From: a virus
Strand: one strand, 5' to 3'
IMG/VR virus record: IMGVR_UViG_3300022204_000005
DNA: 64,000 nucleotides
Positions 36,478-46,589 of the stretch are shown piece by piece. How positions within the stretch are numbered: position 1 is the first letter of the stretch; each line of letters starts with the position of its first letter. The translations under genes were made by a program, and so were the position numbers. The notes below the pieces were generated by a model, which was not told the DNA's origin, did no database searches, and was given only the letters and a program-made list of their open reading frames with translations.

Positions 36478-36549
36478 AGGTCCGTGGTGTAATTGGCAGC
36501 ATGAAAGATTCCAAACCTTTTGGCGGGGGTTCGAGTCCCTCCGGGCCTG
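36478..36549 (+). tRNA. trnW: tRNA-Trp(CCA)
   Basis: acceptor AGGTCCG/CGGGCCT; anticodon loop TTCCAAA; T-arm GGGGG-TTCGAGT-CCCTC. Confidence 0.9.
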
Positions 36550-36770
36550 TAAAGTATGAGCGTTTAGCAAATGCTCTTGTAATACTTCAGTTTCTAGTGT
36601 TCGGTCTTATAGGAGCATTCCTTTTCATCTTTTGGTTTTACGTTACCCTTTTTCAGGAACTGTAACATGAAATACGAAGTAGAATTTGTCTTCACTATGA
36701 AGACTATAAGGAACTTTCTTATAGGAGTAGGTCTTGGGCTCCTAATATATACACTTTTTGAGCTGATTGC

Positions 36771-37055
36771 ATGAGCTATACTCCCTTACAACTAAAGACA
36801 TTCCATAAAGCCTCTATCTATAATAAAGGCGACATTGAAATCTCCGAACAGTGTGGGTGTTTTTATTGTGAGAAAACCTTCCCCGCAAAGGATGTTGTTA
36901 AATACATTGACAAAGGAAGAACAGGTGTTTGTCCCCTTTGTGATATAGATGCTGTTCTACCGGATGCTACCGTTACGGTAACCCCCGAACTTCTGTCTGC
37001 GATGTATTGGAAATGGTTTGTGTTGAGATCTTCGGACGGTCAAGAAACCTCTTGA
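36771..37055 (+). CDS. conserved Cys-rich cytoplasmic protein
   Basis: CGCFYC...YID...T.VCPLC.IDAV pattern. Confidence 0.7.
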   Translation: MSYTPLQLKTFHKASIYNKGDIEISEQCGCFYCEKTFPAKDVVKYIDKGRTGVCPLCDIDAVLPDATVTVTPELLSAMYWKWFVLRSSDGQETS

Positions 37056-45774: not shown

Positions 45775-45822
45775 TCTCCTCGGTAAGCGCCCTTAGCTCA
45801 GCTAGGTACGAGCAACGGACTT

Positions 45823-46440
45823 TGAGAATAGGAGCCTTCTGTGTGGAATATCGAGAAGCTTGTCAAGCACAAGGAGTATGTTTGGGCTAAACTAAAGGAA
45901 ACGCATCCTAAAGTTACCAAACTCGGTTATGTCCTTCACCATAGAGTGGTGATGGAAAACTGCCTTGGGCGACTTCTTGATAATGATGAGATTGTCCACC
46001 ATAAAAATGGTGACAAAAGGGATAACAGTATTGAAAATTTGGAAGTCATGACACGTTCAAAACATGCTAGACAGCATGGCTTTGAGCAAGGCGTTCAAAT
46101 GGTTAGACTGCAATGTCCTTTTTGTTCAAAAGTCTTTGAAAAAGTGAAAAGGAATTCCTTTTTACAGAAAGGTTCAATGACTACTTCATGTAGTAGAAGT
46201 TGTTCCGGTAAATTCTCTTCAAAGATGAGACTTCTCGGAAGAACGCCAGAAGTGGAAGCAGCTATATCGGGGAACCTCCTATCGGAATATATTAAATATC
46301 CCGAGGACAATCCCGAGGAAACCGATTGACAACGGGATCCGTAGAGGCCATACGCTGCTCACCTGAAATGGTGAAGAGATGGTCCAGCCAGCAAGCCTCT
46401 TGTTTTTCAAGAGGTGGTTATGGTAACATGATGCTGGAAG
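45823..46440 (+). mobile_element. group I intron (618 nt) carrying an HNH ORF
   Basis: exon ends in U, intron ends in G; P3 AGCAGC/GCTGCT, P4 TCGGGG/TCCCGA, P6 GGA/TCC, P7 GGCCA/TGGTC, P8 TCACC/GGTGA, P9 CCTCTTG/CAAGAGG. Confidence 0.88.
45841..46329 (+). CDS. HNH homing endonuclease (intron-encoded)
   Basis: [14 protein letters not shown]...[21 protein letters not shown]; C-terminal CPFC/CSRSC; GTG start with AGGAG SD; 3' end runs into intron core. Confidence 0.88.
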
Positions 46441-46589
46441 TTAATCCGTGGGTCCCCGGTTCGATCCCGGGAGGGCGTACTCCTACTCAAAGCCTTTTAG
46501 GGTAGGGTCTTATAAAAACGAAGGTGAATAGAGTGTTGGGCTTTCACTCTTAGTAACCACCCCCACACAAACACACACGGTTAAAGATA

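Follow-up and report, generated by a model that had tools for sequence, protein, structure and literature searches.

An HNH endonuclease-bearing group I intron predicted in the anticodon of a phage tRNA-Lys(UUU) gene

In a 64,000-nucleotide stretch of viral DNA (IMG/VR record IMGVR_UViG_3300022204_000005; the whole stretch is referred to below as the window), two halves of a tRNA-Lys(UUU) gene are separated by 618 nucleotides (nt) that contain an open reading frame (ORF) for an HNH endonuclease. This arrangement raises the questions of what the insert is, whether the split gene could still give rise to a normal tRNA, and how such an insert came to lie within an anticodon. The window belongs to a 77.5-kb contig from a sediment metagenome and, judged by its gene content (nearly all genes on one strand, together with a tRNA island), represents an uncultured phage. 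The combined evidence makes it very probable that the insert is a mobile, HNH-bearing group I intron, self-splicing and selfish, which separates U34 from U35 in the phage tRNA-Lys(UUU) gene and derives from a family of introns of tRNA-Arg(UCU) genes.

The split tRNA gene and its group I core

With long introns allowed, ARAGORN reports a tRNA-Lys(ttt) at 45787-46480 with an intron of 618 nt. Once joined, the exons form a canonical tRNA-Lys(ttt) cloverleaf with a single wobble pair (G1-U72), and CCA is not encoded by the 3′ exon. The predicted splice junction, ...ACGGACUU|UUAAUCCGU... (that is, GGACUU|UUAAUCC, the bar marking the joined ends), would give an anticodon loop of CUUUUAA. No tRNA is called at this position by ARAGORN at its default settings or by the Rfam tRNA model, and no other tRNA-Lys gene was found in the 64-kb window by either ARAGORN mode or by that model. 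A first-pass annotation of the window had claimed that the two halves rejoin as tRNA-Lys(UUU) and that standard tRNA finders would overlook the gene, and had named ARAGORN with long introns permitted as a check; both claims are borne out by these results, and the check recovers the gene. Two other origins of the call were considered and rejected. A chimera of two neighbouring tRNAs does not apply, as neither half is part of a complete tRNA. Mutation of C35 to U in a tRNA-Arg(UCU) gene was considered because the host of the nearest intron core (locus L177) is an Arg gene that has this anticodon stem; against it, the two genes have different D loops, T arms and acceptors, and the D-loop sequence GGATAG is found in the Arg hosts and not in the Lys hosts.

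Sequence comparison supports assignment of the insert as a group I intron of the bacterial tRNA type with an IC3-like core (Table 1). For the covariation test, 12 distinct cores were aligned and the standard group I structure, with its P3/P7 pseudoknot, was written out. In this alignment, 95.7% of the cells are paired and compensatory changes are present in 24 of the 42 pairs; none of 500 shuffles attains the observed values, and slid partners pair in 33-41%. The core helices of the window itself are all intact, with mostly perfect pairing, and the invariant core positions are retained. The G46346-C46384 pair of P7 is invariant and is presumed, by analogy, to be the guanosine-binding pair. At the 3′ end of the intron, G46440 precedes TTAATCC, and a G occupies this position in 12/12 aligned relatives. 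A family covariance model, built from 12 relatives with the window and its nearest Lys-hosted relative excluded, matches 46256-46440 end to end (156 bits, E = 4.5e-41) and has no other match in the 64 kb. A minimum-energy fold of the ORF-deleted intron recovers the anticodon stem, P2, P4-P6, P7, P8 and P9 (z = −3.6). The insert had been predicted in the first pass to follow U34, to end in G and to contain P3 to P9, including P7: the terminal G is confirmed as G46440, and the helices are all present with assigned coordinates and covariation behind them. At the 5′ splice site, C32, U33 and U34 would pair with G45834, A45833 and G45832, respectively, the last as the splice-site wobble (U34 = 45822), and the guide sequence GGAGC is kept in relatives of the window's subfamily. 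P2 also covaries, with TTCATG/CATGAA in L003 and longer stems in the ORF-less L001a/b, L004, L006 and L009.

Table 1. Components of the split tRNA-Lys(UUU) gene, the predicted group I intron and its ORF (positions in the window).
Feature	Position	Strand	Support
5′ exon of tRNA-Lys(UUU): acceptor 5′ strand, D arm, anticodon-stem 5′ strand (45815-45819), C32 U33 U34	45787-45822	+	sequence, ARAGORN, joined cloverleaf
3′ exon of tRNA-Lys(UUU): U35 U36 A37 A38, stem 3′ strand (46445-46449), variable loop, T arm, acceptor 3′ strand, A73	46441-46479	+	sequence, cloverleaf
Group I intron (618 nt), base following U34 through terminal omega G (46440)	45823-46440	+	ARAGORN, core covariation, family model
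HNH homing-endonuclease ORF, 162 codons, GTG start, TGA stop in P6a loop	45841-46329	+	Pfam HNH_3 (E 3.6e-14), PHROG HNH families
P1, exon C32 U33 U34 (45820-45822) with internal guide GGAG (45831-45834)	45820-45834	+	by inspection, inferred
P2 5′ strand, CTTCTG, pairs with 46247-46252 and closes the ORF loop	45836-45841	+	covariation, fold
P2 3′ strand, CAGAAG, within the ORF	46247-46252	+	covariation, fold
P3, encloses P4, P5, P6 and P6a	46257-62 / 46354-59	+	compensatory changes in 5/6 pairs
P4	46268-72 / 46311-15	+	covaries
P5	46277-79 / 46305-07	+	covaries
P6	46317-19 / 46338-40	+	core alignment
P6a	46322-24 / 46333-35	+	covaries
P7, GGCCAT / ATGGTC, pseudoknot with P3, encloses P8	46346-51 / 46379-84	+	100% of cells paired, two covarying pairs
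P8	46360-63 / 46370-73	+	100% of cells paired, three covarying pairs
P9	46388-93 / 46432-37	+	three covarying pairs; in fold
P9a hairpin	46395-46415	+	
P9b hairpin, GUAA tetraloop cap	46418-22 / 46427-31	+	5/5 pairs covary

The endonuclease gene and a proposed splicing and homing cycle

The ORF sits in the P2 loop, and its start is fixed because in-frame stops lie directly upstream. A Shine-Dalgarno sequence, AGGAG (45830-45834), is located 6 nt upstream of the GTG and overlaps the internal guide, and the G of the start codon lies within P2. The encoded protein consists of an HNH_3 domain followed by a Cys-rich CPxC...C segment. Residues H53, H54, N66, H75 and H79 are invariant in 16 relatives, C92 and C95 are likewise invariant, and a search of solved structures gave no sequence match to the ORF. 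After clustering at 90%, 163 full-length relatives with 46-72% identity were found, almost all of them on unannotated metagenome contigs. The conserved tail of the protein, A-I-S-x-N ... D-N-P-E-E-T, is the translation of J3/4-P4 and P4′-P6, so that the final 24 codons also encode the P3-P6 region of the ribozyme. In some relatives, the frame extends through P7 and yields G-S-V-E-T-I. A 162-codon HNH ORF with an end that overlaps the catalytic core, as first proposed for this locus, agrees with the HNH_3 match (Table 1), the intact catalytic residues and the extent of this dual coding.

From these features, the following course of events is proposed. The pre-tRNA would splice itself, with the exon end CUU paired to the guide GGAG and the U34-G wobble in P1, while the anticodon stem would keep the two exons together. 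Alignment of the exons of tRNA introns by the anticodon stem is credited to Zaug et al. 1993 in the review PMC3984707. Free guanosine would attack after U34, the terminal G46440 would then replace this guanosine, and ligation of the exons would give the normal loop. The HNH_3 enzyme would most likely nick or cut intron-less tRNA genes of co-infecting phages, and repair after the cut would copy the intron into the empty gene (homing). As the internal guide doubles as the ribosome-binding site and P2 holds the start codon, the folded ribozyme may block translation of the endonuclease. One stretch of RNA would in that case act as ribozyme guide, ribosome-binding site and coding sequence, which offers a model for the coordinated expression of an intron and its endonuclease. 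In addition, the HNH-carrying branch of the Arg(UCU) 34/35 family would occasionally jump into tRNA-Lys(UUU), a target that differs at position 35 only.

Relatives, hosts and mobility

Two ORF-less introns in adjacent tRNA genes were traced through a BLAST match to LR756508, a huge-phage record. In this 484-kb uncultured phage (L001, LR756508.1), Lys(UUU) and Arg(UCU) genes (966-1234 and 1389-1640) are both split at 34/35, by introns of 193 and 175 nt in which GAAA caps the P2 stems and P10 is clear and covaries. These split tRNAs are missed by default ARAGORN, and the record carries no annotation. A 20-nt motif from J6/7-P7, for which 0.01 chance matches are expected in the window, recovers 11 viral contigs, all of which hold split tRNA genes. 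Among the matches listed, the same 20-mer is present in the genomes of more than 120 bacterial species; these are mostly Gammaproteobacteria (Arenicellales, Thiodiazotropha, Thiohalophilus, Thiomargarita and Thioploca), joined by Bacillaceae, Bacteroidota, Acidobacteriota and others, and the bacterial copies listed are nearly all ORF-less, about 200-490 nt in length, and inserted in tRNA-Arg(UCU) after CUU (34/35). ARAGORN calls of "Ser gct" on bacterial copies represent the same Arg(UCU) site with the terminal G misassigned. Interrupted tRNA-Arg-TCT genes have also been noted in Beggiatoaceae (PMC4853749). Many viral and metagenome copies carry an HNH gene; their host genes are mostly Arg(UCU), with an occasional Lys(UUU). 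The Lys(UUU)-hosted copies are those of the window, L001a, and L002, L007 and L176, which correspond to one another; L133, a row of the window's own clade, probably has a Lys host too.

A tree of 51 cores and 163 columns, which is only rough, separates the ORF-less copies of bacteria from a group that is chiefly viral and metagenomic, with support of 95/90. Exceptions are the bacterial row L046, which falls within the viral group, and the viral rows L001a and L006, which fall among the bacterial copies. The window is nested (100/99) in a viral/metagenome clade of 13 rows, 10 of which are shown in Arg(UCU) genes, and its nearest core, that of the Arg-hosted L177, is 89% identical. The Lys-hosted introns do not form one group in the tree. 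The window intron branches off from the tRNA-Arg(UCU) 34/35 intron family, which is very common.

Copies at other positions and in other tRNAs were also observed. In L004 (411-711), a tRNA-Glu(UUC) copy is located one base further 3′ (35/36, UUUU|CAU), and its guide GGAA covaries with the exon end UUUU. In L006 (543-812; identical to L062, a Bacteroidales metagenome-assembled genome), a Thr(UGU)-like tRNA is split after CCU, and the spliced loop would have C33; this sequence is common to a viral contig and the metagenome-assembled genome. A second, weaker family-model match (56.8 bits) is present 1.8 kb downstream in L006, at 2450-2610, in a context that does not resemble a tRNA. In L061, L078 and L093 (Thiomargarita, Thioploca and relatives), the copy in tRNA-Arg(UCU) apparently follows the whole anticodon (CUUCU|AAGCC, 36/37). 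Finally, the source run (X1) contains a 760-nt contig whose only similarity to the window is the 54-nt P6-P7 core (window 46334-46387); its flanks differ, and it represents a further intron of this family within the same community.

The intron is polymorphic for presence and absence. Uninterrupted tRNA-Lys genes with an identical 25-nt anticodon arm are found on 34 viral contigs, and similarity of the window to other loci ends at the tRNA and intron, the flanking DNA being unrelated. The window also contains an uninterrupted tRNA-Arg(UCU) gene (41005-41081), whose anticodon arm (…AACGGTCTT|CTAAACCGT…) matches exactly the exon sequence around the HNH introns in Arg genes such as those of L134 and L173. 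In the nearest Lys-hosted relative (L007, 7928-8411, on a 262-kb viral contig; also L002 and L176), the HNH gene is fragmented into at least four overlapping frames, whereas the ribozyme core and exons are intact; this gene looks like a decaying homing endonuclease. The unrelated flanks, the decayed endonuclease genes of relatives and the empty sites together indicate spread in the manner of a selfish homing element, and the element is best read as selfish. The Lys hosts have a Lys-type D loop and all Arg hosts have GGATAG, from which it follows that the intron moved and the anticodon did not mutate. A20 is an identity element for arginyl-tRNA synthetase in bacteria.

The proteins encoded elsewhere in the window include an FtsH-like AAA protease, a DUF7227/GP88-like protein and one PHROG family; most others belong to no family. 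Among GenBank phages, the window has no close relative, and the only match to the intron is the core in LR756508. Two adjoining tRNA-like genes at 42924-43057 are recognised by the Rfam tRNA model (43 and 35 bits) and are uncalled by ARAGORN. With long introns allowed, ARAGORN also reports false intron-containing tRNAs at 36478-37171 and 37097-38841, in which halves of neighbouring complete tRNAs are fused; false split-tRNA calls of this kind advise caution in the use of the long-intron mode on tRNA islands.

Alternative explanations and relation to known systems

Several observations weigh against an active, mobile intron. Rfam Intron_gpI (RF00028), applied from the gathering threshold to E 10, matches neither the whole window nor the 3′ core alone. 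P1 has just three exon pairs, and no convincing P10 can be drawn for the window, whereas P10 is clear in L001a and L001b. The only public run with the sequence is the source sediment DNA metagenome, and its contigs contain no spliced or intron-less form. The tree, with its 163 columns, is poorly resolved inside the window's clade. Finally, the tRNA-Arg(UCU) gene described above has the exact exon context of the sister introns and yet is empty, which means either that ectopic homing seldom occurs or that the specificity of the enzyme is higher than assumed. The missing Rfam match is likely due to the ORF of about 400 nt in P2 together with the divergent core; it is not counted as evidence against an intron, because the ORF-less relatives in L001 do match Intron_gpI (E = 7e-9, 40.8 bits, relative to a gathering score of 50). 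In the covariance search with group I models put forward in the first pass, the family model matched the window and RF00028 did not. The lack of a general-model match, the short P1 without an obvious P10 and the restriction of public sequence to source DNA would also fit a dead relic, in which the intron no longer splices and a tRNA-Lys pseudogene is tolerated since the host supplies tRNA-Lys; several odd, truncated tRNA-like genes in the window (for example at 42924-43057) point the same way. A relic is nevertheless quite unlikely in view of the intact and mostly perfectly paired core helices with their invariant positions, the two intact exons with their canonical cloverleaf, the full-length ORF with its catalytic residues and the end-to-end match to the family model.

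That the insert is not a ribozyme at all, but an endonuclease-gene cassette excised by protein enzymes (tRNA-processing nucleases and a ligase), is extremely improbable: the group I core is complete and backed by covariation, the insert is preceded by U at −1 and ends in G, and no tRNA-like shell is present inside it, where both the Rfam tRNA model and ARAGORN are blank. The first-pass annotation had further suggested that splicing times or shields the supply of tRNA-Lys in the face of anticodon nucleases. An adaptive intron of this type would delay or gate tRNA-Lys(UUU), or hold an anticodon-less precursor, and so escape PrrC- or PARIS-type nucleases until needed. PMC11464382 and PMC11555353 describe phage tRNAs, including tRNA-Lys, that counter tRNA-cleaving defences; no second tRNA-Lys gene was found in the window, and the unspliced precursor has no intact anticodon loop. 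However, the family is found overwhelmingly in tRNA-Arg(UCU), including that of more than 120 bacterial species (among the matches listed) that need no such shield, and Lys is a rare secondary host. The spliced loop is the same as that of the 34 intron-less phage tRNA-Lys genes and would be equally cleavable, endonuclease decay in L007 and the unrelated flanks mark a selfish element, and no regulatory input to splicing is visible. An adaptive role is therefore judged very unlikely, and the suggestion of a shield is not upheld.

A selfish mobile intron remains the preferred explanation, and it may be extended, tentatively, to a wider group. The HNH-carrying branch of the Arg.3Ug family (a name from the bacterial catalogue discussed below) might constitute undescribed mobile introns of phage tRNA islands, which hop among tRNAs with CUU|NUAA (Arg UCU and Lys UUU; Glu UUC and Thr UGU in related introns), with endonuclease translation gated by folding and a tail dual-coded with P3-P6. 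The window intron opens no new kind of biology; its phage setting and the compact overlap of gene and ribozyme are of moderate interest. It would provide a case of a homing intron moving between isoacceptor genes with a one-base difference in target. Phage tRNA sets are under-counted because default finders skip intron-split genes, and the phage of the window would be annotated without a tRNA-Lys. Such under-counting matters for arguments from codon usage and for the interest in phage tRNAs as counter-defence.

In plastids, the tRNA-Lys(UUU) gene trnK is likewise split in the anticodon loop by an ORF-bearing intron, the ORF being matK. The plastid intron belongs to group II and its ORF encodes a maturase; the mechanism is unrelated, and the resemblance to the window is one of analogy only. 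The classical IC3 introns, found in cyanobacterial and plastid tRNA-Leu(UAA), Azoarcus tRNA-Ile(CAU) and Agrobacterium tRNA-Arg(CCU), share with the window intron insertion in the anticodon loop and a 3-bp exon part of P1. The tRNA-Leu(UAA) intron also splits its host at 34/35 after CUU. GNRA loops on P2 and P9 are common to the classical IC3 introns and the ORF-less relatives of the window intron. In contrast to these classical introns, the window intron has another host tRNA, a divergent J3/4 and P6, no match to the general Rfam model, and an ORF. To our knowledge, I-SspI, the endonuclease associated with the Synechocystis tRNA-fMet intron, is not an HNH enzyme. As cited in PMC3984707 (Bonocora and Shub 2001), I-SspI is likewise a homing endonuclease aimed at the anticodon region of a tRNA gene, in a cyanobacterial rather than a phage host and with another tRNA and insertion site. 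I-HmuI (SPO1/SP82), I-TwoI (Twort) and I-PfoP3I (PMC3428280) are, like the predicted enzyme of the window, HNH-family endonucleases of phage group I introns that home during co-infection; unlike the window intron, which splits a tRNA gene, their introns split protein-coding genes.

The 2014 review (PMC3984707) places every phage intron known at the time in a protein gene, even though phages have many tRNA genes. The location of the window intron contradicts this generalisation, as a documented case in a phage tRNA gene. A literature search for group I introns in phage tRNA genes turned up no report, although its coverage was incomplete and it is weak evidence of absence; if the proposed HNH-carrying branch of phage tRNA islands is truly unpublished, the textbook claim that phage introns avoid tRNA genes would be overturned. 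In bacteria, the Lys 34/35 setting is already described. The survey of Williams 2020 (bioRxiv 10.1101/2020.01.27.920355), which covered bacterial and archaeal genomes and not phages, extended the known settings of bacterial tRNA introns from 4 to 21, and its seed alignment includes Lys.3Ug, Lys.4Ug, Arg.3Ug and Thr.3Ug. The initial view of the window intron as a rarity must be qualified accordingly: an HNH group I intron at Lys 34/35 is supported, but the setting is catalogued in bacteria and the family is very common in Arg(UCU). Lys.3Ug and Arg.3Ug have the same insertion point as the window intron (CUU|, after the third anticodon-loop base), a U at −1, a terminal G and an IC3-like core layout, and the seed Mle24.Lys.3Ug has in common with the window's family the J3/4 motif UAUAU and the P7 motif GAGACUA.ACG. 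The bacterial copies found in this analysis are nearly all ORF-less and about 200-490 nt long, whereas the copy in the window carries an intact HNH gene and resides in a phage tRNA island.

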